The position numbers were made by a program, and so were the translations under genes. From an uncultured Bacilli bacterium (GTDB lineage Bacteria > Bacillota_I > Bacilli_A > RF39 > UBA660), in assembly GCA_944332535.1 (NCBI GenBank), contig CALVKE010000038.1:1-47469 (forward strand): a stretch of 47,469 nucleotides of DNA, given 5' to 3'. Shown here piece by piece: positions 4,801 through 26,490 of the stretch. The notes under the pieces were generated by a model that saw nothing but the letters and a program-made list of their open reading frames with translations, was not told where the DNA came from and did no database searches. Each line of letters starts with the position of its first letter. Position 1 is the first letter of the stretch.

Positions 4801-7800
4801 CTACTTTTCAAAATAAGCATTCGATGTAGAACCGGGAGCAGCTCCACCTTTTTTAACAAGAACCACTTCAAGTCCTTCAAGACGATAAGCGTATCCTGCA
4901 GTTCCAGCTTTTGCTCCATTTTTTGCCCATCCTAACCATCCAAAGTTCTCGGCATGAACACGATAATAAACATCATAATATTTTGCCATTTCTCCAGTTA
5001 GTTTTATTTCGATTGCTTCCAAGCGTTTTGCTTCTCCGCTCGTTCCGCTCATCTCTCCATTTTTCTTGAAGCTACTTTCCCATCCATAATCTTCAATGTG
5101 CGTACGATATTCGATATTTCCGCTATATTCTGGATTATCTAAATAGATTCGAACTCCTTCGAGGCGTTTTGCTTCTCCACTTGTTCCACTCATTTCTCCA
5201 TCGTATTTATATCCTTGCCATCCGTAGTCTTCTACATGCGTCTGATAATGCACGTATCTTTGCACATACGGTCTACTCGTTACTCCTGGCGCTTTTCCAC
5301 CTTTTTCAACCAATACGATTTCGATTCCTTCTAGACGATAAGCATATCCTGCGGTTCCAGCTTTTGCTCCATTCTTTGCCCAATCTAACCAACCAACATT
5401 TTCGGCGTGGACACGATAATAAATGTCATATTCTTTTGCCATCTCACCAGTTAGTTGAATTTGAATAGCTTCCAAACGTTTTGCTTCCCCGCTCGTTCCG
5501 CTCATGGCGCCGTTTGTTTTCCAACTTTCTTCCCATCCATAGTCTTCAATATGCGTACGATATTGCACTCCTCCACTATATGGAAGATTTTCTAGTTTAA
5601 TATTGATTCCTTCTAAGCGTTTTGCTTCTCCTTCTGTTCCACTCATCGCACCATTTTTTACATAATTTTGCCATCCGTAATCCTCAACATGAGTTCGATA
5701 AGAAACATTTGGGATTTTTTCAACGACTTTTACTGTACATGTTGCCGTTTTTCCATTCGATGTTTTTACTGTAATCGTCGTCGTACCAATCGTTTTTGCG
5801 GTGATTTTTCCCGTACTATCTATGGTTGCAACACCAGTATTGCTCGACGTCCAACTAAGTGTTTTGCTATCCGTCGTATTACTTGGATTAATCGTTGCAG
5901 TCAAAGTAGTTGTAGATCCTTTTTGTATACTTGTGTTTGTTTTATTTAGGGTAACACTAGTAATGGGGCGAGACGGTACTGTAATCGTACAAGTTGCAGT
6001 TTTTCCATTAGAAGTCTTTACGGTAATTGTTGCTGTTCCATATCCCTTAGCTGTTACTTTTCCAGTGCTGTCTACCGTTGCAACAGTTGTACTGTTTGAA
6101 GTCCAAGTAAGTGCTTTACTATCTGTTGTATTACTTGGATTGATCGTTGCACTTAGTGTTAATGTCGATCCCTTTTCAATTGTTGCACTCGTTTTATTTA
6201 ATGTTACACTTGTAATAGGATGCGTTGGTACCGTGATCGTACAAGTTGCAGTTTTTCCATTTGATGTTTTTACTGTGATTTTGACTGTTCCATATCCTTT
6301 AGCTGTCACTTTACCGGTACTATCTACGGTTGCAACATTTGTATTACTTGATGTCCAGGTAAGTGTTTTACTATCCGTTGTATTACTTGGATTAATTGTT
6401 GCACTTAACGTTAGTGTAGATCCTTTTTCAATTGTCGCACTCGTTTTATTTAATGTTACACTTGTAATTGGAATGGGGTTTACTGTAACCTTACAAGTTG
6501 CTGTTTTCCCATTGGATGTTTTTACTGTAATCGTCGTCTCTCCAATCTCTTTGGCGGTAATTCTTCCTGTACTATCTACGGTCGCAACACTTGTATTACT
6601 TGATGTCCAAGTGAGTGTTTTGCTATCTGTCGTATTACTTGGATTGATTGTTGCTGTTAATGTGGCAGTAGTTCCTTTTCCAATCGATAATGTCGTCTCA
6701 TTTAGTGTTACTCCTGTAATTGCCACTGGCTTTTTAATTACGTAGATATACGAACGACTTGTTTTACCGTTAGAAGTAGTTGCAGTAATCGTTGTGCTAC
6801 CTATCGCTTTTGCCGTTACTTTTCCAGTATTATCCACTGTCGCAACACTCGTGTTACTAGAGGTCCAAGTAAGATCTTGACTAATCGTTGCATAGGTTGG
6901 CTTAATCGTAGCTTTTAATTGTAATGTATCTCCAACATATACATTGGAAGTGATTGGTGAAGTGCTTACTGAGGTAATTTCAATAGGAGAAGAGGTTACA
7001 ATTACATCAAAAGCTTCTGTTTTCGATGGATTATTAATTGCATTGGCAAAGATCGTAACTCTTCCCTCTCCTTCTTTTACTCCTGTTAATATTCCATTTT
7101 CATCTACTGTTACAATATCTTTATCCCAAGAAACAAACTTTGTAGAATAAACAAGAGCATTACTTGGCTCATAAGAAAAATCAATCTTTTTCTTTTCTCC
7201 TACGTCTAAAACAATAGTATCTGCTACTACAATTTGATTAAGATAAGTCCCAATTGTAATAATATATTCCTCGCTAACACCAGCAAGTGTTACACGAATT
7301 GTTGCTGTTCCGTCTTTTAAAGCAGTAATAGTTCCATTTTCATCAATCGTTGCAATCGTTGGATTTAAGCTTTCCCATTGAAAAAGATTTTTTGGAATGT
7401 CTCGTTTTGCTAGACCCCATTCTACATTGACTAATCGCGTATATTCCATTTCTTTTGTTTCCCCAACTTTCATTGGGTTAGCAATTTCAGAATCATCTTC
7501 TGTGGTCCGTAATCCCACATCAAAATTTATATACTGTTTAGCGAGTAGTTCATATTCTTCTTTTTCAGCTGTTACCCCCGTTTTGGTTGATAATCCATTG
7601 GATTCTTCATAAGAAAATAATTGAACCCAATAATAAATTCCATTTGATTCATAGCACCCTACACCAATGGATTGAAAACTAGATCTTAAAATATTGGCTT
7701 TATGTCCATACGAACCCATCCAACCATTTACTACATAAGCAGCTGTTGTATAATTTGCTGCAATATTTTCTCCATTTGCTTTTTGTATATCTAAAGCTTC

Positions 7801-9147
7801 TGCCCCGGTCGGCCTCGTATGGCTATAGTAAAGAGCAAGTTCTTTTGCCCGTTGCATAGCGGCCTCCGTTAACTCTGCATCCATTTTTAATGGACTAACA
7901 CCAACATTAAAGCGTTCCTCATTTACAAGAGTAACTACTTCATTTGCCATATCATAATTATATTTTCCTGAAATTGGCACACTAATTACGTCTCTATAAC
8001 TTCCGTCATTTATAAGTGTCAAGTTATCAGGAACAGTGAAGGTTGGAGTATTTGATTGATAATAGAAATTATTATTTAAAAAATCTACTTCCTCTGGAAA
8101 CTCAATGTAACGAAGCTCTGGTGAATAACTGATTCCAGTATTAAGAATTCCTTCTAACGTACCGTTAAAATAAATTTCTTCTAGGCTAGCATTTCTGTAA
8201 ATAGCCCACATATCGACAACTCCAACATTTCCATCAAATATAATGGTATCTAACAGGTCACATTCCGCAATCGATTTATAGGGTACTTCCTCAATATCTG
8301 CATGTATTGTCAATGTCTCAAGAGCATCTAATTCATAAAAAGCAAACATTTCAATTAAAGTTACGCTTTTGGGAACGACTAATTCTACTAGACTATCACA
8401 ATAGCTAAATGCAGATTCTCCAATTTCTTCTACCCCGTTTGGAATCGTGATACTCGTTAAGTTAGAAACGTAGGTAAAGGCCGCTTCCCCAATTATTTTA
8501 ACGCTAGATGGTATCGTATAAGAAGTTCCCGTCTTAGCAGCAGGATAAGCAACTAATTCTGTTTTATCTTTTGTAAACAAAACTCCATTTATAGCAGTAA
8601 AGTTTTTATTTTCGGAGTTCACTACAATTTCACGAATATTCGTATCCATTGCAATTCCTGAACCAATTTTTGATACATTCTTAGGAATGGTTACAGTACG
8701 AATTTGTGTATTACCAATAAATAAATTTACTCCTATCTCTTCTAATGATGTTGGGAAAGTAATCGAAGAGATTTTGGTGTTTTGTAGAGCATTATCTCCT
8801 AGCACTTTTAGATTGCTTGATAGGCTAATCATTGTCAAATTACTGCAATCGGCAAACGCTCCCAGTTCAATCGTCTCGATCGTATTTGGCATTTCTATCG
8901 ATTCGATTGTTGTTTTGGACATAAATGCTTTTTGTCCTATTATCGTAATATCTTTCCCATCAATTTGATTTGGGATTTCTACGATTTCCTCCTCTCCCAA
9001 ATATTTATCAATTTGAACAGTATTATCTTCTAAGATGGTATATTGATATTTCCCATCTGATGTTGTTTCTGCCAAAACATTAGATGATATGAAAAAAGTT
9101 GCAAAAGTTAAAAATATAAACAATATTTTTCTATTTTTGCCTCTCAT
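4801..9147 (-). CDS. Large secreted surface protein: signal peptide, BspA-type leucine-rich repeats, CAP/SCP domain, ~7 Ig-like (Big_2) domains, six ChW repeats
   Basis: Signal peptide ending VLA; LRR units like LTSITIPNGVEEIGESAF; CAP motifs SHTRP, GENIA, WMGSYGHKANIL, YWVQLF; WTSSNTSVATVD Ig repeats; YRTHVEDYGW...SGTSGEAKRLE ChW repeats. ATG 9147 behind GGAG (ORF track start 9168). Confidence 0.88.
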   Translation of the reverse strand: MRGKNRKILFIFLTFATFFISSNVLAETTSDGKYQYTILEDNTVQIDKYLGEEEIVEIPNQIDGKDITIIGQKAFMSKTTIESIEMPNTIETIELGAFADCSNLTMISLSSNLKVLGDNALQNTKISSITFPTSLEEIGVNLFIGNTQIRTVTIPKNVSKIGSGIAMDTNIREIVVNSENKNFTAINGVLFTKDKTELVAYPAAKTGTSYTIPSSVKIIGEAAFTYVSNLTSITIPNGVEEIGESAFSYCDSLVELVVPKSVTLIEMFAFYELDALETLTIHADIEEVPYKSIAECDLLDTIIFDGNVGVVDMWAIYRNASLEEIYFNGTLEGILNTGISYSPELRYIEFPEEVDFLNNNFYYQSNTPTFTVPDNLTLINDGSYRDVISVPISGKYNYDMANEVVTLVNEERFNVGVSPLKMDAELTEAAMQRAKELALYYSHTRPTGAEALDIQKANGENIAANYTTAAYVVNGWMGSYGHKANILRSSFQSIGVGCYESNGIYYWVQLFSYEESNGLSTKTGVTAEKEEYELLAKQYINFDVGLRTTEDDSEIANPMKVGETKEMEYTRLVNVEWGLAKRDIPKNLFQWESLNPTIATIDENGTITALKDGTATIRVTLAGVSEEYIITIGTYLNQIVVADTIVLDVGEKKKIDFSYEPSNALVYSTKFVSWDKDIVTVDENGILTGVKEGEGRVTIFANAINNPSKTEAFDVIVTSSPIEITSVSTSPITSNVYVGDTLQLKATIKPTYATISQDLTWTSSNTSVATVDNTGKVTAKAIGSTTITATTSNGKTSRSYIYVIKKPVAITGVTLNETTLSIGKGTTATLTATINPSNTTDSKTLTWTSSNTSVATVDSTGRITAKEIGETTITVKTSNGKTATCKVTVNPIPITSVTLNKTSATIEKGSTLTLSATINPSNTTDSKTLTWTSSNTNVATVDSTGKVTAKGYGTVKITVKTSNGKTATCTITVPTHPITSVTLNKTSATIEKGSTLTLSATINPSNTTDSKALTWTSNSTTVATVDSTGKVTAKGYGTATITVKTSNGKTATCTITVPSRPITSVTLNKTNTSIQKGSTTTLTATINPSNTTDSKTLSWTSSNTGVATIDSTGKITAKTIGTTTITVKTSNGKTATCTVKVVEKIPNVSYRTHVEDYGWQNYVKNGAMSGTEGEAKRLEGINIKLENLPYSGGVQYRTHIEDYGWEESWKTNGAMSGTSGEAKRLEAIQIQLTGEMAKEYDIYYRVHAENVGWLDWAKNGAKAGTAGYAYRLEGIEIVLVEKGGKAPGVTSRPYVQRYVHYQTHVEDYGWQGYKYDGEMSGTSGEAKRLEGVRIYLDNPEYSGNIEYRTHIEDYGWESSFKKNGEMSGTSGEAKRLEAIEIKLTGEMAKYYDVYYRVHAENFGWLGWAKNGAKAGTAGYAYRLEGLEVVLVKKGGAAPGSTSNAYFEK
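4810..5710 (-). repeat. Duplicated block of three ChW repeats, 453-bp period
   Basis: YRTHVEDYGWQ (Tyr codon at 5700) and YQTHVEDYGWQ (5247); near-identical AKAGTAGYAYRLEG in both blocks. Confidence 0.8.
5716..6723 (-). repeat. Four tandem 252-bp (84-aa) Big_2 coding repeats
   Basis: Units begin at 6723, 6471, 6219, 5967; each has ATINPSNTTDSK and VKTSNGKTATC; a more diverged unit begins near 6981. Confidence 0.88.
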
Positions 9148-9172
9148 TTTCTCTCCACTCCTTTTCAACTGT

Positions 9173-9181
9173 ATTATATCA
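9173..9181 (-). promoter_or_regulatory. Extended -10 element for the surface protein gene
   Basis: Minus strand TGATATAAT about 25 nt upstream of the ATG; no clear -35. Confidence 0.45.
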
Positions 9182-9282
9182 CTAAATGTTAAAATTTAAT
9201 ACCTTTTTTTTAATAAAATCGTTAATTTTCATTTGGAATTCCGTTTTTTAAAGAAAAGTGGAAATAAGTCTGATTATATTTT

Positions 9283-9346
9283 ATAAGATTTATAAATCAA
9301 GGGCGAATGAAATGAGTTTATGAAACCCTTGATTTTTAAATCTTAT
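9283..9346. repeat. 21-bp intergenic inverted repeat with 22-nt spacer
   Basis: ATAAGATTTATAAATCAAGGG (9283-9303) / CCCTTGATTTTTAAATCTTAT (9326-9346), 20 of 21 complementary. Confidence 0.85.
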
Positions 9347-9540
9347 TGATTATAATAAGTTATACAAATAAAGTTCATCTTTATTTGTTATCAATAAATT
9401 AATTGATTTTTATCCTTTTATAGTGGTTATTATAATATCTAAAGCGGAATTTAGTCTAAAAATTGAAGTTGTAAGATAAATGTAGACACAAAAATACATG
9501 TCTACATTTTTTGTTATAATAAAATTGGAGGTATAACAAT

Positions 9541-9909
9541 ATGGCAAGAATAAGAAAAGAACCTAATAGGTATTGGTCAAAAGAAGAAAAATTAAAATTA
9601 ATAAAAGAAGTTTTAAATGGTGAATCGTCAGTTCAAGTTGCAAAAAGATATGATATATCTGATGGAATGCTCAGAAATTGGATTATTAAATATAATAAAT
9701 ATGGTGAATCATCTTTAGAAAATAAAAAGAAACCTGGAAATCCTTTATGTAAATATTCAAATAGAAAAAACTTAACAGAAATAGAACAACTTCAATATGA
9801 AAATATGAGATTAAAAATTGAAAACAAACGATTAAAAAAAGGTTACCTAGTGAAAGGAGATGGTACAGTTGTAGTAGTAGACGAGAAAAAGTTTTGGAAT
9901 TCGAAATAG
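9541..9909 (+). CDS. IS3-family transposase OrfA (helix-turn-helix)
   Basis: WSKEEKLKLI...VAKRYDIS...LRNWIIKY HTH and LKIENKRLKK zipper; GGAGGT RBS; TGTTATAAT upstream. Confidence 0.88.
   Translation: MARIRKEPNRYWSKEEKLKLIKEVLNGESSVQVAKRYDISDGMLRNWIIKYNKYGESSLENKKKPGNPLCKYSNRKNLTEIEQLQYENMRLKIENKRLKKGYLVKGDGTVVVVDEKKFWNSK
9834..9841 (+). other. -1 programmed frameshift site (A7G) giving the OrfAB fusion
   Basis: TTA AAA AAA GGT in orfA; the -1 frame reads RLPSERRWYSCSSRREKVLEFEIV without a stop into orfB. Confidence 0.75.
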
Positions 9910-10778
9910 TAGAAACATTAAGTAAAGATTATTCTATAAAATCATTATGCGATATAATGAATATTTCAAGAAGCGGATATTATAAATGGTTGAAAAACAA
10001 AGATATTTTAAATCAATATGAAAGCAATCGTAGAGATTTAGAATCATTAATTAGAGATATACATAAAAGAAAACCAAGTTATGGTTATCATAGAATAAAT
10101 GCTATTATTCGAAGAGAAACAGGATGGGTCGTTTCAGATAATTTGGTACATAAAGTTTGTAAGATCTTCAAAATAAGAAGTAAAGCTAGACACTATTCGA
10201 TTTATAAGAAACCAGGAGAAGAATCAATAAAATATCGTAATATTATAAATAACAATTGGAAAACTTCTCGCCCTTTTGAGAAAATAACGTCCGACACAAC
10301 AATGATTTGGTTTAAAAGACAAAGATATGATTGGACATATTACGTAGATGCATTTGATGATTCTATAATAGGATCAGATATTAAACCTTTTTATCACGGA
10401 GTAAGCGTGTCTAATCATAGAAATGCTTTAAATGATATGTTACAAAATAAAATAAAAAGAGGATATAAAAGCCAAGAAACTATTTTCCACTCAGATCAAG
10501 GCACAATATATTCCTCATTGGCATTTAATAATGCACATAAAGATTATAAAATAATTGGGTCTATGTCGAGAATAGGTACACCAACAGATAATCCAATTAT
10601 TGAATCAAAAAACGGTTGGTTAAAGAAAGAAATGTATATTGATTTTAATCAAGAAGATTATGAAACTGTTGAACAATATATAGAGGCTATTATATATGAT
10701 CATAATTACTTAAGACCCAGTTATGCATTAAATTATAAAACCCCAATTGAGTATAGAAATCAATTGGGGTTTAAATAA
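9894..10778 (+). CDS. IS3-family transposase OrfB (DDE integrase core)
   Basis: ISRSGYYKW, YGYHRI, ITSDTT, FHSDQG, DNPIIES, LNYKTP motifs. Confidence 0.92.
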   Translation: MEFEIVETLSKDYSIKSLCDIMNISRSGYYKWLKNKDILNQYESNRRDLESLIRDIHKRKPSYGYHRINAIIRRETGWVVSDNLVHKVCKIFKIRSKARHYSIYKKPGEESIKYRNIINNNWKTSRPFEKITSDTTMIWFKRQRYDWTYYVDAFDDSIIGSDIKPFYHGVSVSNHRNALNDMLQNKIKRGYKSQETIFHSDQGTIYSSLAFNNAHKDYKIIGSMSRIGTPTDNPIIESKNGWLKKEMYIDFNQEDYETVEQYIEAIIYDHNYLRPSYALNYKTPIEYRNQLGFK

Positions 10779-10880
10779 ATGTTTTTTATTGTCTACTTTT
10801 CATTGACAACTTTATTTAGTCTAAAAATTCACGTTTTTTTAATAAAATAAGCATTTTTATACATAGTACAAATATCCAGC

Positions 10881-10917
10881 AAAAAAAGAATGCGTTCTGT
10901 CATTCACGCACTTTTTT
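10881..10917 (-). terminator. Rho-independent terminator ending the polymer/side-chain operon
   Basis: Minus strand AAAAAAGTGCGT-GAATGACAGA-ACGCATTCTTTTTTT directly after the stop at 10920. Confidence 0.7.
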
Positions 10918-10919
10918 CC

Positions 10920-11816
10920 TTAAAATTCTTCTTGTTTATAGACAGATGGGAAAAAAGGAAAAAACTTATATCGTCCTTTGTCCCAGAAATAGGTATAATC
11001 GAACCCTTTCGAAAACAGGACAGCACCAATGGTGCCACTAGTTCTTCCTGCAATAAAGCAATCACATTTCGATAATAGAATAATTGTCGTTAAATATTCT
11101 AGTCCTTTTAAATAAGCATCATTTTTTCGTTCGAAATGGATTTTCGATAAATAAGATCCTTTTGTATTTGAAAATCGCTTTTGATTACTGTAAATTAATT
11201 TTTTCCCGAAAGCCTTTTGAAATTTTTTTAAAATTTCTTCGTCTTCTGTTGCTAAAAAAAGTTTTTGACATTTGCGTCTTTTCATCACTTTTTTGGCTTT
11301 TTCAATAACTTCTTCTGCCGTTGGTTGCACAGGATGACGGAACGGTTTTAACTGCACATAATCCGTTCCTCTACAAAGTACCCCTAAAACTCTATCTTTT
11401 CTATCTTTTCCAAATAAATTTCTTTCTTCTTTCTCAATGACTTTTCTAGTTCCATAATTCAATCGTATATATTTTTGAGCAATCTTTTTCCAATAATCTC
11501 TTTTTTTCTTATTCAAAAAGAAAGACATCGAATCATTTGGACGATTTCTCGGCACACTTGTTAACTCTTCCCATTTCTTTCCTTCAATATCTTTTAATGA
11601 AATATTCATTGGCTGTTCAAAAAAGAATTCCCAAGCATTCTTGAGTCCTACTTCCCCTTCTTCTAGATAAGCATTGGGGTAGGTTTGCATATCAATCACA
11701 GGAATCTTCCCCTCTTGGATTACCTTATTAATATTTCCAATATTCGTAATCACATAAGAAAAAAGTCCGAGATGATCTCCATATCTTTTAATTACTACAT
11801 ACTTTTCTTCTGTCAT
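10920..11816 (-). CDS. Putative fucosyltransferase (NodZ/O-fucosyltransferase-like fold)
   Basis: GVLCRGTDY, LFLATED and LLSKCDCFIAGRTSG resemble fucosyltransferase motifs I-III. Confidence 0.6.
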   Translation of the reverse strand: MTEEKYVVIKRYGDHLGLFSYVITNIGNINKVIQEGKIPVIDMQTYPNAYLEEGEVGLKNAWEFFFEQPMNISLKDIEGKKWEELTSVPRNRPNDSMSFFLNKKKRDYWKKIAQKYIRLNYGTRKVIEKEERNLFGKDRKDRVLGVLCRGTDYVQLKPFRHPVQPTAEEVIEKAKKVMKRRKCQKLFLATEDEEILKKFQKAFGKKLIYSNQKRFSNTKGSYLSKIHFERKNDAYLKGLEYLTTIILLSKCDCFIAGRTSGTIGAVLFSKGFDYTYFWDKGRYKFFPFFPSVYKQEEF

Positions 11817-11826
11817 GTTCTTCTCC

Positions 11827-13929
11827 TTATACTTCTATTAAAATCCAATCATCTTCGTAAATATCTACTTTTTGATTTGGATTTTGAAACCATTTCGATG
11901 GAGCTATGGTAATTCTTTTTTTACTATCCGTCAAATATTGTGCCCACCAACTAAAAGAAGAATTGGAAATGATAAAATGCTTACAGTGATACATGAGACG
12001 TAATTCCTCATAATTTGGATTATTTCCTTCTATAAATACCATTTTCTCATTCGATTTTAAATGTTCCTTCACCCAAGCAATATCGTCTGAGAAAATAAAG
12101 AACGTAGGATCTTTCACTCTTTTTTTCATCACTTGCATTGCGTTTTGATAATACTCTATTGTACAAACTTGATGATTACTTCCTACATAGTCTCCTCTTC
12201 TAATATGGACACACACGGATGTTTCTTTTTTTATTTTGTCTAATATCTTTTTATTTTGAGGGAGTACTTTCTCTTTTACCCTTAATTCCTTCTTTAAAAT
12301 ATCTTTGTATTCCTCAAAGTATTTTAACGATTGATAGTATCCTACCATCACCTGGTGACGACTAGGACTTTCTTGTAGTTCCATATACCCATCTGGAACA
12401 CAGTAAAATCCAAAATAATTTAGTATTGGTTGCATTTTTTGCATAACTCTAAAACCGTTTTTTCTCTTTCCTAAAAATACGTAGTAAAATCCATAGAGGA
12501 GATAATTCAAGGAACTTTTGATCCCTTCTCTTTTTGTTATTTTTATTTTTTTTGAAATACAGAAATGATTTAATGAATAAACATTATGTGTTTTGTTCGT
12601 AATTCCTTTTAAAGAGAGCTCTCCTTCTATATGGTACTTCAGCATATGACTTCGCAGTGCACAATATTCAAACATTTGGTTTCCTAATCCTCCTGCTAAA
12701 CGCATCGTTACCTTTCTAGAGGAAGAATTGCTATAATGTTCAATTAAGAATAAATAAACGGTAAATTGAAAAAACATGATGAATAAGTAAGAAAGACTGG
12801 CTCCTAATAAGGCATGTCTCGGAATAATATAATAGCATACAAGAATAGCAGAAAAAGCATCTATTATTAGTACCATTAGTTGTGAAAAAGTCTTTCGCAT
12901 CGCTATTAAGACTGCTGAAAAAAAGGAAGATAGTGCGTAAAAGGTAGAAGCTAGTAGAATGATTACTAAATTTATTTGCTGGTTAACTAAGTCAATTCCA
13001 TATAATAACTCTAAGACTGGTTCTCCTAAGAAATATCCTCCGATCATACAGCAACCGCCGCACACTGCAACGAACGCTGAAATTTTAAAAAGAAATACTT
13101 TTAAATCATGATATTTTTTATCTCCTACCATCTCTCCGATTCTTACTAAGAAAGGTTGAATAATATACCCGGCAACCAAAGATAGAAAGGAAGCTGGCAT
13201 AATAATAATTCCATAAATTGCTTGAAGGTCATTCTGTCCTAACAATTCTAATGCATAACGAGGGGCATTTAATAAATATATGGTCAAAAAAGAAAACAAG
13301 AAAGTATAGGTACCATCTCTTAATAAATGGAAGTTGCGTCTCCAAGAAAAAGGAGTTTTCTTGATTGGTTTAGCAGATGGAATATCATAACCTATTAAAA
13401 ATAATACGCCGGTTATCACAATGGCAAGACATGCTAAGACTAGATTTTTCGTTCCATAATTAACGAGGAAAAATACCCCTGTTATTACAACTGCTCTTGC
13501 AAAAAGAGAAATTCCTGCTCTATACAAATTACCATTCTTTTGGGTAATTGCATGGAAAGATTCCATAATTGCATCTAATCCGCGGTATAGTGTTAAAAGG
13601 AATAATACCATTCCCTTTTTTCCATCACACCCCGTACATAAAATAAAAATAACTGCAGCGATGATGGCAATAATATAGGTAAAAAGGCGGTTATAGATAT
13701 AATCGGTATCGGAATACTGATTTTTAATATCTGTAATTTGAAAGGTCTTTCCACAATAAGCTGCAACTGCATATAGAATACATGCTGTTGCAAAACAATA
13801 CGTAAAAATTCCTGCATCTTCGATCCCATTAACTCTGGTTGTAATCATCATGAAAAAAAGAGAAGTGAATCCAAATATCAAAGATCCGATAAAATTCCAA
13901 ATAAAATTCTTTTTCGTTTTCTCTTGCAT
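11827..13929 (-). CDS. Fusion protein: Wzx-like flippase (about aa 1-400) + GT11 alpha-1,2-fucosyltransferase (about aa 405-700)
   Basis: KNFIWNFIGS start and ~12 hydrophobic segments, then RLAGGLGNQMFEY, GYYQSLKYF, VHIRRGDY, IFSDD, ISNSSFSWWA in one open frame. Confidence 0.85.
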   Translation of the reverse strand: MQEKTKKNFIWNFIGSLIFGFTSLFFMMITTRVNGIEDAGIFTYCFATACILYAVAAYCGKTFQITDIKNQYSDTDYIYNRLFTYIIAIIAAVIFILCTGCDGKKGMVLFLLTLYRGLDAIMESFHAITQKNGNLYRAGISLFARAVVITGVFFLVNYGTKNLVLACLAIVITGVLFLIGYDIPSAKPIKKTPFSWRRNFHLLRDGTYTFLFSFLTIYLLNAPRYALELLGQNDLQAIYGIIIMPASFLSLVAGYIIQPFLVRIGEMVGDKKYHDLKVFLFKISAFVAVCGGCCMIGGYFLGEPVLELLYGIDLVNQQINLVIILLASTFYALSSFFSAVLIAMRKTFSQLMVLIIDAFSAILVCYYIIPRHALLGASLSYLFIMFFQFTVYLFLIEHYSNSSSRKVTMRLAGGLGNQMFEYCALRSHMLKYHIEGELSLKGITNKTHNVYSLNHFCISKKIKITKREGIKSSLNYLLYGFYYVFLGKRKNGFRVMQKMQPILNYFGFYCVPDGYMELQESPSRHQVMVGYYQSLKYFEEYKDILKKELRVKEKVLPQNKKILDKIKKETSVCVHIRRGDYVGSNHQVCTIEYYQNAMQVMKKRVKDPTFFIFSDDIAWVKEHLKSNEKMVFIEGNNPNYEELRLMYHCKHFIISNSSFSWWAQYLTDSKKRITIAPSKWFQNPNQKVDIYEDDWILIEV

Positions 13930-13941
13930 GTTGGCCTCCTT

Positions 13942-14904
13942 CTATAAATATAAATACTTTGCAAGATGTTTTAATAGAAATTTAAGAAGTGCATAATATT
14001 TTTTATGAATGATATATAAATATGTTCGGTAAGATATCGGAAGCGTAGAAATATAGCGATTTTGATACCAATTTGGATACTCTTTTTCTACATGTTCACA
14101 AATCTCTTGAATCATTTCTTTGGAAAAATGTTGGTGAAAACTAGCTCGATACGTAGTTCCTATTAAAATATGATATAAATTCATAAATTCAATGTTTTGA
14201 CGATATTTTTGATAAATTCTTTTTTTCTTTGCAAATGATTTTATCTCTTCCATAATTTGATAGATATCAAAAATTCGATCGTCCGCCCTTCTTACTAAAG
14301 ATCCCTCTTGCTGGCGATAATTATGTAAGAATTCATCCACAATGCTAAAACTTTTCGCACTAATAAATACTTCTGCTCCTACTAATAAATCCTCATACCA
14401 AATGTTTTCGGGGAATCTTATTTTATTATCCTTTAATAAACTTAACTTACATAATTTATTCCACATGGCTGGAAATTTTGCAAGATATACATCTTCTTTC
14501 GTCATGTGATGATATGTTACTTTGTTCGGATAAATTCTTTTAATGCTACAAATCGTAAAATCTACATTTTTTTCTTGGATTTCTTGATATAAATTTTCTA
14601 GATAAGTGTCTTCCAAATAATCATCGCTGTCGATAAAGGAAATATACTCTCCTTTGGCTCGATCTAATCCATAATTCCTAGCACTACTGACTCCTCCATT
14701 TTCTTTGTAATAGTAATGAAATCTTTTATCTTCTTTTATTTCTTCTTGAATAATGGTAGCTGTTTGATCGGTACTCCCATCGTCTACTAATAATACTTCA
14801 AAATGGGGATAGGTTTGCTTTTGTATGGATTGAATGCATTCAGCAATATATTTTTCCACATTATAGCATGCAATAACAATTGTAATCTTACTTTTTTTCA
14901 CCAT
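13942..14904 (-). CDS. GT2 glycosyltransferase
   Basis: VIACYNVEKY, VDDGSTD, NGGVSSARN, FIDSDD, WYED. Confidence 0.9.
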   Translation of the reverse strand: MVKKSKITIVIACYNVEKYIAECIQSIQKQTYPHFEVLLVDDGSTDQTATIIQEEIKEDKRFHYYYKENGGVSSARNYGLDRAKGEYISFIDSDDYLEDTYLENLYQEIQEKNVDFTICSIKRIYPNKVTYHHMTKEDVYLAKFPAMWNKLCKLSLLKDNKIRFPENIWYEDLLVGAEVFISAKSFSIVDEFLHNYRQQEGSLVRRADDRIFDIYQIMEEIKSFAKKKRIYQKYRQNIEFMNLYHILIGTTYRASFHQHFSKEMIQEICEHVEKEYPNWYQNRYISTLPISYRTYLYIIHKKYYALLKFLLKHLAKYLYL

Positions 14905-15226
14905 AACACTTTTCCTCTAATAACGCTACTCTTTGCGCTAACTCTGTTATTTTTTCTTGTTGCTCAGAAATTCTCTTGCTGTTTCGAAAGTTGATAAATA
15001 CCAAAAAGATAATACAAAACACAAAAAATAAAGAAGGCGGATAATATACTCCAAAGAATTCTGCTACTTTGTTAATCGAATAAGGAAAAATTGCTAAAAA
15101 TAACATGACGATAGCTGCTATCGTCCACCAAAAGCTTTCTTTGATCGAAAACTTTTTCTTTCGCACTTCTGAAATAATATAAATAATGCTGAGTAGAGCA
15201 ATGATAATAAAATAAATCGTTTTCAT
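14888..15226 (-). CDS. DUF2304-like small membrane protein (GacJ/WpsB-like)
   Basis: Three TM segments, FGVYYPPSLFF, C-terminal ITELAQRVALLE; coupled to a DPM-like GT2. Confidence 0.8.
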   Translation of the reverse strand: MKTIYFIIIALLSIIYIISEVRKKKFSIKESFWWTIAAIVMLFLAIFPYSINKVAEFFGVYYPPSLFFVFCIIFLVFINFRNSKRISEQQEKITELAQRVALLEEKCYGEKK

Positions 15227-15951
15227 CGTTCTTTCACCTTCTTTTTAGGATGTTGAATCAAAATAAATACGATGGTATAAAACATATTCACCATATATCT
15301 TATGGGTTTGATAATGCCACCATGCATGCTTTCTCCTGCCTTTCTAAGGCGCATTTTAACTGGAATTTCTTTAATTTTATATCCTTCTAATAACATTTCA
15401 ATAATTAAATTGGCATCTGGAAATTCTGGATATCCTCCCATTTCAGAATAACGATCGATCACTTTTTTATTGATACACTGAAATCCAGATAAAGGGTCTG
15501 CTATTTTTTCTTTACAAAATAATTTAATCATCCCAGAAAACAACTTAGTTCCGAGTTTCCGAAAAAAAGGGGCTGGATAACCCATATCTTTTAAATATCT
15601 GGATCCAATCGTAATATCATAGTTGCCTTCTTTAGCCGCCTCATATAATTTTAATGCTTCCTTTGCAATATGTTGTCCGTCCGCATCAAACTGAATCACA
15701 TAATCATAATCGTACAGATTCGCATATTTAATTCCCGTTTGCACAGCCATCGCGTATCCCATATTAAATACTCCTGTGATACATTTTACCTTATTTTTTC
15801 TTACAATTTCTTCGGTTGCATCTTTCGATGAGTCATTAATTACTAGAATATCTGCAAAACTAGCGTCTTTTTTAATTTCTTTTAATACTTTTTCAATATT
15901 TTTTTCTTCATTATACGCTGGGATGACAAATAACACCTTTTCTTTTTCCAC
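15223..15951 (-). CDS. GT2 undecaprenyl-phosphate glycosyltransferase (GacI/WpsA-like)
   Basis: IPAYNEE, AVQTGIKYA, QFDADGQH, IGSRY, DPLSGF, MRLRKAGESMH; GTG start with GGAGGT RBS. Confidence 0.85.
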   Translation of the reverse strand: MEKEKVLFVIPAYNEEKNIEKVLKEIKKDASFADILVINDSSKDATEEIVRKNKVKCITGVFNMGYAMAVQTGIKYANLYDYDYVIQFDADGQHIAKEALKLYEAAKEGNYDITIGSRYLKDMGYPAPFFRKLGTKLFSGMIKLFCKEKIADPLSGFQCINKKVIDRYSEMGGYPEFPDANLIIEMLLEGYKIKEIPVKMRLRKAGESMHGGIIKPIRYMVNMFYTIVFILIQHPKKKVKER

Positions 15952-15964
15952 GATGATTACCTCC

Positions 15965-18085
15965 TTATAAAAAATAATGAATAATTGTATTGATTACATT
16001 AAAATGAACAAAAATGATAAGGGCTGTATAAACGAGTCCTATTTTAGGAAAGAATAGATATCGTTTCTTATTACATAATAGAAGGAATGGTAAAATAGCA
16101 ATCGGTAAGAAATATCTTCCTTGTACTCCTTCTGCTACGCTTGCTCCAACAGAGGTCCAGGTTAAATACATTCCAAAAATAGTAAGTAAGAAAATCACTG
16201 CAAATACGCTTATCATTCCGATCTTCTCCCATTTCGTGTATTCTTCTTTTTCTTTGATTAAGAAGGGAGAAAGTAATAAGAGTAAGATATAAATATTAAT
16301 AACCATTCGATCAATAGAAATGTTAAACCAACCGAGTTCTACGCCGAAAAAACTATCCCAGTAAAATGTTGCATTTGTTCCGATCGTATTAATAAATACT
16401 CGCAAAATAGAAAATGGATGCGATAATAGATTGGATAGTTGAGAACCCAAACTAATATTTTTTACTGCGACTTCCTCACTGACCACTTGTGTTGGAGTCA
16501 TTGCATGAAGAATGTATAGTCCAATACATACAAGGATAGATGCAATCGTAAAGAGGACAATTCTTTTTTTATCTTTAGTTGGGACCCATTCTTTTTTCAT
16601 AAATAAAAGAAGAAGACTCAGCAAAACGAGAGGAATATAGACGTATTTCATGCAAGCAACCAATAACATGGATAATAATAGTAATACTTGTTGCTTTTTG
16701 GTCACTTTCTTCTTTCGCTTTAGTAAATATAAGATATAACATATATAGAAAATACCAAACATATTCATCATGGAATCTGCGGATACCGAAATTGCTTGTT
16801 GCAACCACATTGGATTTAGAAAGTAGATTGTTAAAACGAGCTTTCCGATCGGTAATATTTTGATAGAGAAATAAGCAAGTAGTAAGAAAACGATAAAAGT
16901 GAGGATTCTTGCCAAGTAAAATCCTACGAAATAAGGTAGATGAAATACCTTTCCCAAAGAAAGTCCTATAATAGATGGAAGATAGGAAACAATACTATAA
17001 CCAGATGCCGTAGACTTTCCCATTTCGCCATTCGGAGGCGTCAATAGTAGATCATTTAACTGCTGGTAACTTTTTAAATTAGAACTATTATTGTCTTCTA
17101 CTATTTTAGGAATCTCTACATAGGTTCCAGTATCTTCTAAAACACCTTGTGTTATTTTATAGGCAGAAGCATAGTGAACGATCTCATCCGGAACGTGCGT
17201 TGGAGGGAGAAACAAAAGATATCCAAGGCCAATTGGAATCGCAAAAAGAAGAAAATAATCTTCTATTTTACGAGTGTGTCTTGATTCTTGATAAGCTTGT
17301 AGAAAAAGAAGAATTTCGCCACATAATAATAGGCCCCCAAAGCATAAATAAGAAAAGGTAAAATGATAATAAAGGTGGATAATAAACACGTATAACAAAC
17401 CGAGCGATAAGCCACTCAATAAGAAATAAATAATGTAAAAAATAGTTTTTTTCTTAAGGAATGGTAGGTATGAATGAATCTTTTCGTTTTTCCATACCTG
17501 TAAATAAAAATAAAAGCTAATGACAAAAAGGAAGAGGAAAAGTACTAAAATTCCTGCTAAAAACACTGTATCTCCCGTTAAAATGATAGCACTCTGATAA
17601 GGATAATGCTCCTCTTTTATTTCAACGTATTCCTCCCTTTGATTACTTTCTTTTCCATAAATTGCAATTTTTTCTTCTTCTTCGCACTCTCTACACTGTA
17701 GTTCAAAACTCAATAGCTTTCCTTTACTATCTCCTATTTTGTCAAAGGAAAATACGACGTAGGTGTTATCTGTAATATCGTCTGTCTTTAAATCTACTTT
17801 TCGAATCTCCTCTCCCTGGCTGTTTCTTAGAGTGAAATCTAATGTTTTATCTTCTATTGTCTGTTGATAGGTTCCTAATTTTATAGCAATTGAATCTAAA
17901 TTATCTACACTTGAATAAAAGAATTGCGTCACACTATTGTCTTGATAAATATTCGTATAGACCAAATCGTCTGAACCTCGATAATTTTCTACATGATAAA
18001 AGTTGCCTTTCAACAAAATCCCTATTAAGGAAATAGAGCATAAAAGAAATAAGCCAAATAAAATTTTATTCTTATTCTTTTTCAT
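15965..18085 (-). CDS. DUF2142-like multi-pass membrane protein (putative GT-C transferase, GacL/WpsJ-like) with extra N-terminal extracellular domain
   Basis: PPTHVPDEIVHY, SVSADS, KYVY, GVELGWF, EGVQGRYFLP motifs; more than 10 TM segments. Confidence 0.75.
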   Translation of the reverse strand: MKKNKNKILFGLFLLCSISLIGILLKGNFYHVENYRGSDDLVYTNIYQDNSVTQFFYSSVDNLDSIAIKLGTYQQTIEDKTLDFTLRNSQGEEIRKVDLKTDDITDNTYVVFSFDKIGDSKGKLLSFELQCRECEEEEKIAIYGKESNQREEYVEIKEEHYPYQSAIILTGDTVFLAGILVLFLFLFVISFYFYLQVWKNEKIHSYLPFLKKKTIFYIIYFLLSGLSLGLLYVFIIHLYYHFTFSYLCFGGLLLCGEILLFLQAYQESRHTRKIEDYFLLFAIPIGLGYLLFLPPTHVPDEIVHYASAYKITQGVLEDTGTYVEIPKIVEDNNSSNLKSYQQLNDLLLTPPNGEMGKSTASGYSIVSYLPSIIGLSLGKVFHLPYFVGFYLARILTFIVFLLLAYFSIKILPIGKLVLTIYFLNPMWLQQAISVSADSMMNMFGIFYICYILYLLKRKKKVTKKQQVLLLLSMLLVACMKYVYIPLVLLSLLLLFMKKEWVPTKDKKRIVLFTIASILVCIGLYILHAMTPTQVVSEEVAVKNISLGSQLSNLLSHPFSILRVFINTIGTNATFYWDSFFGVELGWFNISIDRMVINIYILLLLLSPFLIKEKEEYTKWEKIGMISVFAVIFLLTIFGMYLTWTSVGASVAEGVQGRYFLPIAILPFLLLCNKKRYLFFPKIGLVYTALIIFVHFNVINTIIHYFL

Positions 18086-20189
18086 TTTTCTCTACCTCCT
18101 TTTTATCTAGTACAAAACACATTTCTTTACTTAGATTCGGGTTATAAAAAGGATCATTTTGTAATATTTTTTTCCACTTTTTTTTCATATATTCCGTGGA
18201 ATACTGCAATTCTTTTGCTTTTTCGGGACTTTGGCTCTTGCCACGACTTAACGATTCATAATGATAAAGCTCTACTTGTGGTAAACAGATATTATAGTAG
18301 CCTTTTTCTAGTAATTTTAAGCAAAAATCAATGTCATTATAATTTATTTCTAATTCTTCTGTTAATCCGTTCACTTCAAAGTATTTCTTTTTATCAACCA
18401 TTAGACAGGCTCCAGTAACAGCAGCATAATTATAAGGAACAAGTAATCTTCCCGCTAGGGCAGATGCAAATTTGTCTTTTAGATAGTACGCATGATTTGC
18501 AATCTTTTCTTCCCCTACTCCTACTACTACTCCAGCATGTTGAATCTTTCCATTTGCAAATAAAAGCTTTGCTCCTACTGCGCCAATGCGTTCTTGCATT
18601 GCATAACCTAACATGATTTCTAACCACTCTCCATCGATTACTTCCACATCATTGTTTAACAGTAATAAATAGTCTCCTTCGGCATGCTTTGCTCCTATGT
18701 TGTTAATTTTTGAATAATTAAACTTTTCTGGATATTCCATCACTTTTAAATTATCGTGCTCTTCTTGTAATTTTCGCAATCCTTCCATCGTATGTGCTTC
18801 TTGACTATTGTTATCGATTATGATCACTTCATAATTTTGGTACTTCGTTTTTTGATATATCGAATTTACACAGGTCTCTACAAGCCCTATTTTGTCTTTT
18901 GTTGGAATGATAATAGAGACTTTCGGATTATTTTTCATTTCATATTTTAAAATATAGGAAGTTGCTATATTAGCGATCGATGCTTTGATTTTTCTTCTTT
19001 TTAAGGCATCTTCTAATGCTTTTATTCCACTCATGCTAGCATAACTTTTATTATCTGTCGTCATGGAAGTGGATCCTTCTATCATTCTCCAATGATATAA
19101 AATTTTAGGAATATGGTAAATGTTTTGTGTTTGTTCCGTAAAGCGGAGCATTAAGTCATAGTCTTGTGCTCCTTCATACCCTTTCCTAAAGTTTCCTATT
19201 TGCTTTACAAGTGATGTTCTTAACAACGCAAAGTGACAAATATAGTTATGACTTAGCAAGGTATCTGGCGACCAGTCTGGTTTAAAATGTGGGTCACATC
19301 TTCTTCCAAATGGATCTATTTTATCTTCATCCGTATAAATAAGATCTAAGTTTTTATTTTTGTTTAACGCTTTTACTACTTCGTAAAGAGCATTTTTGTC
19401 TAATATATCATCATTATCCATTAGACCAATAAATTCTCCTCTGGCAATCTTTAGTGCAGAATTACTTGCTTTGGAAATATGACCATTTTTCTTTCGATAA
19501 ACAACATGCACTTTGTCATATTTTTTTTCCATTTCTTTTAATAGTTGAATCGTTTCTTGATTCGTAGAAGCATCATCGGCGATACAAAGTTCAAAATTTG
19601 GATATGTTTGCAGCATTACAGATTCTATTGCCTCTTTTAGATATTTTGCATCGACATTATAAACAGGCATAATGATCGAAATGAATGGCATGTAGGAAAA
19701 CTTTTGATAAGAAGAAGATTGGGGATTTTCCCGCAGCCAATCATTATAATCTTCTATGCTGAAAAGTTGATAGAAACGTTCCTCTTTTGACCGATTCAAA
19801 ATAATCCGTTTGATAAATAAGGAGGCATATTCTTTTAATTTCTTAGGGGGGATGAAAAAGTGATACTCTCTCCAGAGAAACTGAATATTTCGTTTTATAT
19901 AAGAGCATTTTCTAGTACGATTTCGCTTTCTTTGTAAAGAAGCGAGAGAGGTTTGATAAAGAAGTGTCTCTTTCTTTTTTTCTATGCAATAAACCATCAA
20001 CTTTTTTCCTTCTTTTGGACAAGCAAACATAAAAGAAAAACGACAATCAGAAAGATTCGGATTTTCCTCTAGCAAAACTTGTTGATCTAATAAAACTTTT
20101 AATTGACTTCGGTTAGAAGGAAGAGTTCCAGAAATATATAAATCTGCAGTATCTTCCAATAACTCGATCTTCTCTATTTCCTGTTTCAT
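18072..20189 (-). CDS. Two-domain GT2 glycosyltransferase
   Basis: ISIIMPVYN...IADDAS...GAQDYDL, then VSIIIPTKD...LLNND...AVTGACL...NDIDFCL. Confidence 0.9.
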   Translation of the reverse strand: MKQEIEKIELLEDTADLYISGTLPSNRSQLKVLLDQQVLLEENPNLSDCRFSFMFACPKEGKKLMVYCIEKKKETLLYQTSLASLQRKRNRTRKCSYIKRNIQFLWREYHFFIPPKKLKEYASLFIKRIILNRSKEERFYQLFSIEDYNDWLRENPQSSSYQKFSYMPFISIIMPVYNVDAKYLKEAIESVMLQTYPNFELCIADDASTNQETIQLLKEMEKKYDKVHVVYRKKNGHISKASNSALKIARGEFIGLMDNDDILDKNALYEVVKALNKNKNLDLIYTDEDKIDPFGRRCDPHFKPDWSPDTLLSHNYICHFALLRTSLVKQIGNFRKGYEGAQDYDLMLRFTEQTQNIYHIPKILYHWRMIEGSTSMTTDNKSYASMSGIKALEDALKRRKIKASIANIATSYILKYEMKNNPKVSIIIPTKDKIGLVETCVNSIYQKTKYQNYEVIIIDNNSQEAHTMEGLRKLQEEHDNLKVMEYPEKFNYSKINNIGAKHAEGDYLLLLNNDVEVIDGEWLEIMLGYAMQERIGAVGAKLLFANGKIQHAGVVVGVGEEKIANHAYYLKDKFASALAGRLLVPYNYAAVTGACLMVDKKKYFEVNGLTEELEINYNDIDFCLKLLEKGYYNICLPQVELYHYESLSRGKSQSPEKAKELQYSTEYMKKKWKKILQNDPFYNPNLSKEMCFVLDKKEVEKNEKE

Positions 20190-20202
20190 AGCTTCCTACC
20201 TC

Positions 20203-20970
20203 CTATAACTCTTCTGCAAATCTTTTTTCCAGTTTTTTAAATATTTTATGTCCTAAATATACCAAAATCATACTTAATAGTAACAGTAAGAAGAGATCTT
20301 GAAAAGGGGGAGCAGTTTTATATAATAAAATATCTCGATAACAAGTAATAATTTGAGTCATAGGATTTAATTCTAGAATCCATCTTACGTTTGCTGGAAA
20401 CATAGTACTATTATAGACAATTGGCGTTGCATAAAACAACATATTAATAAAGAAATTGATAATGTACTCTGCATCTCTTATATATACGTCAACAGCACTC
20501 GTAATAAAAATAATTCCTAGTGATAATAAATATTGTGCCAAGATGACGAGTGGTAAGAATAGGATATTATAACTAATTCCAATCCCACTAAAAATAACAA
20601 ATAAGAAGATTACAATAAAAGAAATTAGAAAGTTTACTAACCCACTTGTGGCAATCGAAATCGGTAAGATTTCTCTTGGAAAATAAACCTTTTTAATAAT
20701 TCCAGCGTTCATAAGAATGCAGGTGGTTCCCTGCATAATAGTGGTCGTAAAAATATTCCATGGAATGATACCAACTACTAGAAACGTTAAATAATTTTCT
20801 TGTGTTGTCTTTAAAATAAAAGGAAACACAATAGCATATATCAATGCAGAAAGAAGAGGATTGACAAAGGACCATAATATTCCTAAAAAAGATCCTTTGT
20901 ATTTACCACGAACTTCTTTTTTTACATTATTTTTTAATAATTCTCTATAATTGTATAACTCTTTTATCAT
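20203..20970 (-). CDS. wzm: ABC-2 polysaccharide exporter permease
   Basis: KYKGSFLGILWSFVNPL, IKKVYFPREI, FYATPIVY, LNPM, EKRFAEEL. Confidence 0.92.
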   Translation of the reverse strand: MIKELYNYRELLKNNVKKEVRGKYKGSFLGILWSFVNPLLSALIYAIVFPFILKTTQENYLTFLVVGIIPWNIFTTTIMQGTTCILMNAGIIKKVYFPREILPISIATSGLVNFLISFIVIFLFVIFSGIGISYNILFLPLVILAQYLLSLGIIFITSAVDVYIRDAEYIINFFINMLFYATPIVYNSTMFPANVRWILELNPMTQIITCYRDILLYKTAPPFQDLFLLLLLSMILVYLGHKIFKKLEKRFAEEL

Positions 20971-20984
20971 GGTTCCTCCCGTTT

Positions 20985-21713
20985 CTAACCACAGACTTTC
21001 AAATATTCTTCAATGACTTTATCAATTTTTCCATCCATTCTGATTTTTCCATCATAAATCCAAATACCCCTCGTACAAAGATTTCGAATCGCCTCTAAAC
21101 TATGGGAAACAATTACAATTGTTTTGTTACTGTTTTTTAATTGGTTCAATTTTTCGAAACACTTATCCTGAAAATGTTGATCTCCTACGGCTAAAATTTC
21201 ATCGATTAACAATATTTCAGCATCCACATTAATCGCAATCGAAAAGGCAAGACGCATGTACATTCCAGAGGAATACGTGCGAATGGGTTGGTCGATAAAC
21301 TCTTCTAGCTCTGAAAAAGCAATAATTTCATCTATTCTTTTTTCAATTTCTGCTTTCGTAAGGCCGAAAATAGAAGCATTGAAGTAAATGTTTTCTCTTC
21401 CTGTAAAATCTGGATGGAACCCTGCTCCAAGTTCCAATAAAGAAGTCAATTTCCCTTCTGTTTTAATTTCTCCAGAAGTAGGATAAATAATTTTGGTCAT
21501 TAATTTTAGAAGGGTTGATTTTCCACTTCCATTAGTTCCAATTAAAGCGACCGTCTCGCCCTTTTTAATTTTTAAATTAATATCTTTTAGAATCATTCTA
21601 GTTTCTACTTTGTTTTTTCGAAAAACAAGACGTTCTTTGAGGGTTGCGGGTTTGTCCGTTGCTATTTTAAAACTCTTGCTCATGTCCTTGATTATAATTG
21701 CATATTCTTTCAC
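20985..21713 (-). CDS. wzt: ABC polysaccharide exporter ATP-binding protein, no C-terminal carbohydrate-binding extension
   Basis: GTNGSGKST, LELGAGF, YSSGM, LLIDEILAVGD, VSH; 242 aa. Confidence 0.92.
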   Translation of the reverse strand: MKEYAIIIKDMSKSFKIATDKPATLKERLVFRKNKVETRMILKDINLKIKKGETVALIGTNGSGKSTLLKLMTKIIYPTSGEIKTEGKLTSLLELGAGFHPDFTGRENIYFNASIFGLTKAEIEKRIDEIIAFSELEEFIDQPIRTYSSGMYMRLAFSIAINVDAEILLIDEILAVGDQHFQDKCFEKLNQLKNSNKTIVIVSHSLEAIRNLCTRGIWIYDGKIRMDGKIDKVIEEYLKVCG

Positions 21714-21717
21714 TTTT

Positions 21718-24358: not shown

Positions 24359-24381
24359 CGTTATCGCTCCATTCTTTTGAT

Positions 24382-24410
24382 ATTATAATATATAATTCAA
24401 AATATGACAA
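24382..24410 (-). promoter_or_regulatory. Internal sigma-A-type promoter for 24358 and downstream genes
   Basis: Minus strand TTGTCA (24410-24405), 17 nt, TATAAT (24387-24382). Confidence 0.7.
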
Positions 24411-24420
24411 GTTTCGACCC

Positions 24421-25398: not shown

Positions 25399-25420
25399 GT
25401 TTTCTCCTGTCCTTTCTTTT

Positions 25421-26323: not shown

Positions 26324-26361
26324 AAAACCTCCCATTCTGCAATGCTACCATTGCTATAATC

Positions 26362-26475: not shown

Positions 26476-26490
26476 ATTTCTGTTCCTTAT

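Follow-up and report, generated by a model that had tools for sequence, protein, structure and literature searches.

A conserved fusion of a Wzx-type flippase to a GT11-family glycosyltransferase in a glycan locus of an uncultured Bacilli bacterium

In a stretch of 47,469 nucleotides (nt) from an uncultured Bacilli bacterium (assembly GCA_944332535.1, contig CALVKE010000038.1; this whole stretch is called the window below), one gene on the minus strand encodes both a Wzx-type flippase and a complete glycosyltransferase (GT) domain of family GT11. This fusion of flippase and transferase is genuine and conserved, and it is rare. For the observations taken as a whole we favour, with moderate confidence, a single bifunctional inner-membrane protein, flippase plus GT11 domain, which would act in a side-chain pathway based on undecaprenyl phosphate (Und-P) and hand on its product locally. 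The main interest of the fusion is as natural evidence for the coupling of flippases to transferases. The gene and its parts, with amino acids (aa) numbered from the ATG start, are as follows.

11827..13929, minus strand: whole fused gene, flippase::GT11, a single open reading frame (ORF) of 700 aa with an ATG start
12739..13929, minus strand: 12-helix MOP/Wzx-type flippase domain (GacK/WpsG-like), aa 1-397, from hydropathy, AF2 model, Foldseek, VIA and homology
12712..12738, minus strand: linker HYSNSSSRK, short and basic, aa 398-406 (H398-K406), from sequence and alignment
11827..12711, minus strand: GT11 domain (alpha-1,2-fucosyltransferase family), predicted to be cytoplasmic, aa 407-700 plus stop, from PF01531
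12703..12705, minus strand: internal in-frame ATG (M409) with AGAAAGGT 4 nt upstream, not conserved

The start codon of the fused gene has a strong AGGAGG upstream, and gaps of 12 nt and 10 nt separate the gene from a GT2 gene upstream and from the next gene downstream, respectively. A first-pass annotation of the window had read it as a Wzx-type flippase joined in frame to a GT11 domain by a linker, HYSNSSSRK, at about 12710-12740, and this description is borne out by one frame of 700 codons, a 12-helix MOP domain, a PF01531 domain and the linker at 12712-12738. The AF2 model has the last helix running up to residue 400 and the first beta strand of the GT11 domain from residue 406 onwards. 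Because stand-alone GT11 proteins begin 7-12 residues ahead of the GGLGNQ stretch, we regard the two parts as joined end to end, with hardly any linker added.

A search of 5.8 billion proteins returned 37 other full-length homologues (689-721 aa, 33-72% identity, 98-100% query coverage). The junction is the same in all 38 aligned proteins: the last helix is followed by a short Lys/Arg-rich stretch and then by (I/V)R(L)MGGLGNQMF. A genome of the same bacterial family (G737) carries a fused orthologue with 53% identity in an open frame of 699-700 aa. Contigs of two other sequencing runs cross the junction with 0 gaps, one of 3021 bases in run X1 (10900-13893; this run may be the sample from which the window was assembled) and one of 674 bases in run X2 (12183-12856). 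Their six substitutions consist of five synonymous changes and M516I. Around the junction the two other frames are full of stops, and there is no homopolymer run of 5 or more within about 60 bases. The contigs of a third run (X3) do not bridge the junction and leave 12629-12723 uncovered; an RNA-library run (X20) gave one contig of 248 bases (13733-13980), which falls short of the junction and is no proof of transcription. Whole or in part, the fused gene occurs in 20 runs belonging to 13 studies, most of them under the label chicken gut metagenome.

How common the architecture is was assessed with one genome per species. Within the bacterial family, 2 of 401 genomes carry the Wzx-GT11 fusion (that of the window, G000, and G737), 41 have a match to the N-terminal domain only and 7 have a separate GT11; GT11 genes occur in 9 of the 401. 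In the class, the fusion is present in at least 1 of 399 scored genomes (the window's own), a tally that is a floor as candidates in G174 and G388 could not be scored. The best 150 matches of a hidden Markov model search of 1.84 billion 50%-identity representatives comprise 2 full-length fusions, 106 flippase-sized proteins, 39 proteins of 255-330 aa (stand-alone GT11s and a few flippase fragments) and 3 other long proteins, in which the flippase is joined to transferases of other types (see below). A metagenome scan with the N-domain alignment gave 403 pattern matches, of which one locus was confirmed, a stand-alone flippase (L098). A contig scan with the full-length alignment picked up GT11 motifs, and its 80 loci, matching only residues about 371-700, are uninformative on the range of the fusion. 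By these counts the fusion is not common. The first-pass annotation knew of no characterised Wzx-GT11 fusion; likewise, the full-text literature searched, supplements aside, held no paper on a Wzx-glycosyltransferase fusion, and none is named in the passages on fused, fusion or Wzx in two reviews (PMC9574508, PMC8035078).

GT11 is not the only partner of this flippase subfamily, which is also found fused at its C-terminus to GT2 (G705, P0061; 677 aa), to GT4/GT1 (G716, P0230, P0290, P0298; 790-814 aa) and to DUF4422 (P0263; 679 aa). The G705 and G716 fusions (L108 8185-10218 and L111 6412-8784) lie inside the same GT2-DUF2304 module that surrounds the fused gene of the window (see below). The history of the fusion was approached with two trees, both quick ones with a single topology each and no bootstraps. 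In the FastTree of GT11 domains a branch separates the 38 fused proteins and one truncated fragment from 111 other GT11s, which points to a single origin of the GT11 half. In the tree of N-terminal domains (184 rows), one well-supported clade unites 34 of the 38 fused proteins with 18 stand-alone ones, and the remaining 4 fused proteins sit on a long separate branch. Taken together, the trees suggest an old fusion with later losses or domain exchange. Within the bacterial family, the closest stand-alone GT11 (G569) has 52% identity. As a separate observation, two stand-alone GT11 genes (G580 C20, L110 1571-2548; G463 C6, L114 6906-7862) match the fused protein in tblastn from residues 381-384, that is, from within the last flippase helix, and may have been left over when the fusion was split.

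The N-terminal half shows about 12 hydrophobic helices behind a K-rich N-terminus, and in the AF2 model, built on the 38 homologues (mean pLDDT 88.7), helices are continuous over residues 4-400. The best solved match by Foldseek is WzxE (9g9o_A; E 4.7e-8, TM 0.74), followed by MATE exporters and MurJ. VIA-align of residues 3-406 gave Z-scores of 34.7 for NorM, 31.7 for WzxE (394 residues, root-mean-square deviation 3.6) and up to 27.8 for MurJ. As modelled, the N-terminal domain has a MOP-superfamily fold. We assign it to the Wzx/PST group because of its homology to members of PF01943 and not because of the model score: stand-alone proteins of 407-414 aa from three related genomes are 38-39% identical to it (E 1e-80 to 1e-87), and these relatives pass PF01943 with 40.0, 36.1 and 30.5 bits (cut-off 28.2). 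Precomputed PF01943 matches exist for 3 of the 38 fused proteins, and a JGI homologue bears the name O-antigen/teichoic acid export membrane protein. NCBIfam returned nothing for the fused protein, and a sequence profile search of the PDB with alignment A1 returned only MATE chains, which are not significant (E 0.27-0.39). The gene context speaks for a domain that would translocate a polyprenyl-linked glycan.

With 12 helices and the N-terminus inside (sidedness being taken from the positive-inside rule), the GT11 domain is placed in the cytoplasm, the location that the earlier annotation had expected from topology prediction. The cytoplasm is the site of nucleotide sugars. A complex prediction with the two halves as separate chains scored 0.00 and speaks neither for nor against an interface.

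The GT11 domain matches PF01531 with 150.2 bits (cut-off 23.9), the best stretch being aa 511-698, and is the sole PF01531 match in the genome; in the orthologue of G737 the match covers profile positions 26-297. In the model, this domain has a fold match to NodZ (3siw, by Foldseek). The GGLGNQMF stretch starts from G413, and G413, G414, G416, N417, Q418, H575, R577, G579, D580, S614, D615, S655, N656 and S657 are the same in all 38 proteins. We take the characteristic motifs of the family to be GGLGNQ, HxRRGDY, SDD and SNSSFS.

The fused gene lies in a long glycan locus on the minus strand, and the genes that matter most for its interpretation are these.

15965..18085, minus strand: 706-aa polytopic membrane protein, candidate GT-C transferase in the role of GacL/WpsJ (PF09913, DUF2142, 160 bits; PF14264, GtrII, 30.8 bits against a cut-off of 30)
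15223..15951, minus strand: 242-aa GT2, candidate polyprenyl-phosphate sugar synthase in the role of GacI/WpsA (PF00535)
14888..15226, minus strand: 112-aa DUF2304 membrane protein in the role of GacJ/WpsB (PF10066, 106 bits; 4-nt overlap with the GT2 gene)
13942..14904, minus strand: 320-aa GT2, cytoplasmic elongating glycosyltransferase (PF00535, 141 bits)
10920..11816, minus strand: 298-aa NodZ/FUT8-like protein, candidate second enzyme of the fucosyltransferase superfamily (PF19745, FUT8_N_cat, E 2.5e-4, under cut-off)

Down the minus strand, the locus begins with an LCP ligase, an O-antigen-ligase-like protein, a GT2, RmlA (over the NCBIfam cut-off), a methyltransferase, a WsaF-type GT, a GT1 and an ABC ATPase with its ABC-2 permease. 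It continues with a double GT2, the 706-aa DUF2142/GtrII-like protein, the 242-aa GT2, the 112-aa DUF2304 protein, the 320-aa GT2, the fused gene, the 298-aa NodZ/FUT8-like gene and an IS3 element. A scan of 9000-28900 for promoters and terminators stayed at chance (86 promoter-like sites where 94 are expected, and 12 terminator-like ones where 9 are expected). The GT-C candidate is matched in position in L107, L098 and L112. For the 242-aa GT2, the best NCBIfam matches are PpgS (85.9 bits), AglJ (76.3 bits) and a dolichyl-P hexose transferase, all under cut-off and the first two far so. The 298-aa gene has a Shine-Dalgarno sequence overlapping the stop of the fused gene 10 nt upstream and is possibly translationally coupled to it; its language-model features match at 0.97 clusters in which 11-58% of members have NodZ or FUT8 domains, which we treat as a lead only. 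The 298-aa protein is not homologous (E 1.9) to the product of the gene that follows the fusion in G737. At the end of the glycan cluster, the IS3-type element (9541-10778, plus strand; two overlapping ORFs, HTH_Tnp_1 and rve) directly abuts it and a DDE_Tnp_1 transposase (2390-3637, plus strand) lies further on; mobile elements flank the locus at this variable end.

The order GT-C, GT2 of about 240 aa, DUF2304, one or more GTs, flippase and GT recurs in the window and in all related loci examined (L082, L083, L084, L098, L112, L107, L108, L111). In the unfused loci (L082-84, L098 and L112) a separate GT2 gene directly follows the flippase, and it is this slot which the fused GT11 fills. Passages of PMC10821137 present the trio of GT2, DUF2304 and GT-C as a signature of Und-P-based transmembrane glycosylation, and in bioRxiv 10.1101/180810, as far as passages of it go, GacJ is the DUF2304 protein, with PpgS/Rv3632 as a parallel. 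In the lactococcal Wps system (WpsA/B/G/J), passages of PMC10821137, PMC9574508 and PMC8035078 describe a first sugar linked to Und-P which is extended by cytoplasmic transferases before export by a Wzx-type flippase, after which the GT-C enzyme attaches the exported oligosaccharide to rhamnan. Because the gene order is conserved in the related loci, we assign the flippase to such a four-component module: it would be of the GacK/WpsG type, within a side-chain module appended to an ABC-transporter cluster for a cell-wall polysaccharide of the rhamnan type. The classical O-antigen export of the Wzx/Wzy type, as the first-pass annotation had it, is not what this order points to.

The analysis establishes the fusion and its conservation, along with topology, folds and gene order; which lipid carries the chain, in what sequence the enzymes act, whether the product is handed on or gated and which sugar is added are matters of inference, and the following scheme is to be read in this sense. 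The 242-aa GT2 with its DUF2304 partner would place the first sugar onto undecaprenyl phosphate, and the chain would be extended at the cytoplasmic face by the 320-aa GT2, the fused GT11 and probably the NodZ-like enzyme. The flippase domain would then move the finished lipid-linked oligosaccharide outward, where the DUF2142 GT-C enzyme would attach it to a rhamnan-type backbone, itself exported by the adjacent ABC transporter. As the linker of about 9 residues would hang the GT11 domain on the cytoplasmic end of helix 12, a late-acting and otherwise soluble transferase would be held at the cytoplasmic mouth of the flippase, with local hand-off of its product and the two activities at 1:1. The earlier suggestion was that flipping is restricted to fucosylated units; what the fusion shows is co-localisation and not such gating.

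A number of observations weigh against this interpretation, the first set of them concerning the donor sugar. GT11 enzymes are known to depend on GDP-fucose. In the genome of the window (1.12 Mb, 90% complete), gmd (TIGR01472), fcl (NF047922), fkp (PF07959) and manC (PF22640) were not found over their cut-offs, and the sole extended short-chain dehydrogenase/reductase found is GalE. In the family, all 9 genomes with a GT11 lack gmd over cut-off (it occurs in 3 of the 401 overall), and rmlB and rmlC were not found in the assembly of the window's genome despite rmlA and a rhamnosyltransferase-type gene. At 90% completeness such absences prove little, and this genome may simply miss a sugar-nucleotide block. 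The gene directly upstream of the fusion in G737 encodes a ManC-like mannose-1-phosphate guanylyltransferase (L107 3287-4354; TIGR01479, 328 bits, under the cut-off of 373), which hints that a GDP-sugar donor is made locally. The fucosyl activity named in the first-pass annotation is thus doubtful as a fact, given that gmd, fcl, fkp and manC were not detected. We use "fucosyltransferase" as a family label, fucose as the transferred sugar being unproven from sequence, and in genomes with no detected GDP-fucose synthesis the GT11 domain may transfer a sugar other than fucose.

Other points of this kind concern the flippase and the fusion itself. Residues 1-406 have no Pfam match even at E<=10 and do not reach the cut-off of PF01943, and in an alignment of the N-terminal domain with 16 close stand-alone relatives (A2) only 3 of the 17 rows match that family. 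The fold alone cannot separate Wzx from MATE, the Z-score for MATE by VIA being slightly the higher, and a pTM of only 0.68 makes it uncertain how the two domains lie relative to each other. The N-domain tree implies at least 5-6 changes in the fused state and most relatives are unfused, so that the fusion is dispensable. Since most relatives work unfused, we see in it an optimisation and not a requirement. Lastly, the O-antigen-ligase/Wzy-like gene upstream (27281-28639) makes an undecaprenyl pyrophosphate (Und-PP) carrier and a Wzy-type route conceivable.

The alternative which this last gene suggests is that the flippase domain serves the classical Wzx/Wzy pathway: the GT11 domain would cap a repeat unit linked to Und-PP, and after flipping, the unit would be polymerised or ligated by the O-antigen-ligase-like protein. 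We consider this unlikely, although it is the most serious competitor. The O-antigen-ligase-like protein (PF13425) and the LCP ligase (28842-30350) do stand in the same cluster on the same strand, and it is in this pathway that Wzx proteins are best known. On the other hand, there is no phosphoglycosyl transferase of the PF02397 or WecA type in this half of the locus, the sole Bac_transf gene (39301-39975) being part of a separate cps cluster, and in L082-84, L098/L112, L107, L108 and L111 the flippase travels with the GT2, DUF2304 and GT-C trio.

A second question is whether one gene gives two products, the full-length protein and a soluble GT11 of 292 aa started at the internal ATG (M409; first base 12705, preceded by AGAAAGGTAACG) with a weak ribosome-binding site of its own. 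The ATG is located where an ancestral start would be expected, given that stand-alone GT11s begin 7-12 residues before GGLGNQ, and AGAAAGGT sits 4 nt 5' of it; the orthologue of G737 likewise has its own ATG with AAGGAA upstream near the start of the GT11 domain. Yet the methionine is not conserved: the column holds I, L or V in the homologues shown, most of which have no Met in the linker; in a few, a Met occurs one to four residues before that position. The purine-rich sequence resembling a Shine-Dalgarno motif is forced by the Arg-Lys codons of the linker, a comparable motif precedes 3 of the 21 internal in-frame ATGs of the gene, and the only RNA-library contig covers just 13733-13980. We therefore think two products improbable. 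The first-pass suggestion that this ATG may be a vestigial or a secondary start is plausible in its first part, as a relic of the ancestral GT11 start, and a conserved second product is not supported.

It is more improbable still that the N-terminal domain has degenerated from a flippase to a mere membrane anchor of GT11, some other protein doing the flipping. The domain lacks a Pfam match of its own, and the window holds a second possible MOP protein (31530-33080; pairwise 17% identity over 155 aa, E 0.014). However, the polar or charged residues Q64, Q130, D119, H126, R145, R345 and K346 within the helices are invariant or nearly so in the 38 proteins, down to 33% identity, and the domain is as similar to stand-alone relatives of working size as these are to each other. 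Moreover, the fused gene fills the exact slot of the flippase, and the module has no other Wzx-type gene. Finally, an artefact of assembly or sequencing which merged two genes by a lost stop codon or a frameshift is practically out of the question even for a genome assembly fragmented into 96 contigs, since the same architecture is found in 37 other proteins from several sources, G737 among them, the contigs that span the junction in two further runs show no indel, and the junction has no homopolymer.

A bifunctional flippase-transferase in an Und-P side-chain pathway thus remains the reading we prefer, and it bears on a wider question. The specificity of Wzx-type flippases is treated as unresolved in the TacF "gatekeeper" study and in passages of the WzxE paper (PMC11706664). 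As one flippase subfamily is joined to four unrelated types of transferase (GT11, GT2, GT4 and DUF4422), the fusions can be read as a "Rosetta stone" for contact between flippase and transferase. It is tempting to speculate, and we do so tentatively, that Wzx-type flippases normally contact the last cytoplasmic glycosyltransferase, that completed lipid-linked glycans are handed over directly, that fidelity comes partly from this hand-off and not solely from what the cavity recognises, and that the GT11 domain may transfer a sugar other than fucose. The fusion predicts an interaction that can be sought in unfused systems such as Wps and Gac, and as a natural complex of flippase and transferase in fixed stoichiometry it lends itself to structural and biochemical studies. 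The module would decorate the cell wall of an abundant gut bacterium with a small genome. Such side chains typically are phage receptors and host-facing antigens.

Beyond the IS3-type element, a 1455-aa surface protein (4801-9168, minus strand) combines BspA-type leucine-rich repeats, a CAP domain, seven Big_2 domains and six ChW repeats. A second, Wzy-type capsule-like cluster (30367-42279, minus strand) encodes Wzz, a CpsD-like kinase, a CpsB phosphatase, Bac_transf, WecG, GT4, GT2, a TupA-like ATP-grasp protein and UDP-glucose dehydrogenase, together with two unannotated membrane proteins, of which the 516-aa one (31530-33080) is faintly collinear with the flippase domain (E 0.014). It is followed at 42506-46246 (plus strand) by GDSL esterase, DUF4358, MBOAT and DHHW genes, a set that looks like a module for O-acylation of polysaccharide or teichoic acid.

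Among known systems, the fused flippase is reminiscent of GacK of Streptococcus pyogenes and WpsG of Lactococcus, which in the passages on them are likewise 12-helix proteins of the Wzx type, encoded beside a GT2-DUF2304 pair and a GT-C in or next to an ABC-transporter rhamnan cluster. The likeness is one of family, fold and gene order. GacK and WpsG stand alone, whereas the flippase of the window carries a C-terminal glycosyltransferase. WzxE, the lipid III flippase of E. coli (PDB 9g9o/9g9m; Open Biol 2025, PMC11706664), shares with the N-terminal domain the 12 helices in two lobes, but the two are only 12-16% identical, and the cargo of WzxE, which lacks a fused enzyme, is an Und-PP-linked trisaccharide of a Wzy pathway. 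Stand-alone bacterial GT11 proteins (PF01531) have the same complete domain with the same conserved residues, and that of the window differs in being tethered to a flippase. A precedent in kind is provided by the natural GacJ-GacI (DUF2304-GT2) fusions of Geobacter, Desulfuromonas and others, which also join two components of such a system and which passages of PMC10821137 and bioRxiv 10.1101/180810 take as evidence that the parts form a complex. There an activator is joined to its synthase; in the window, a flippase is joined to an elongating transferase.

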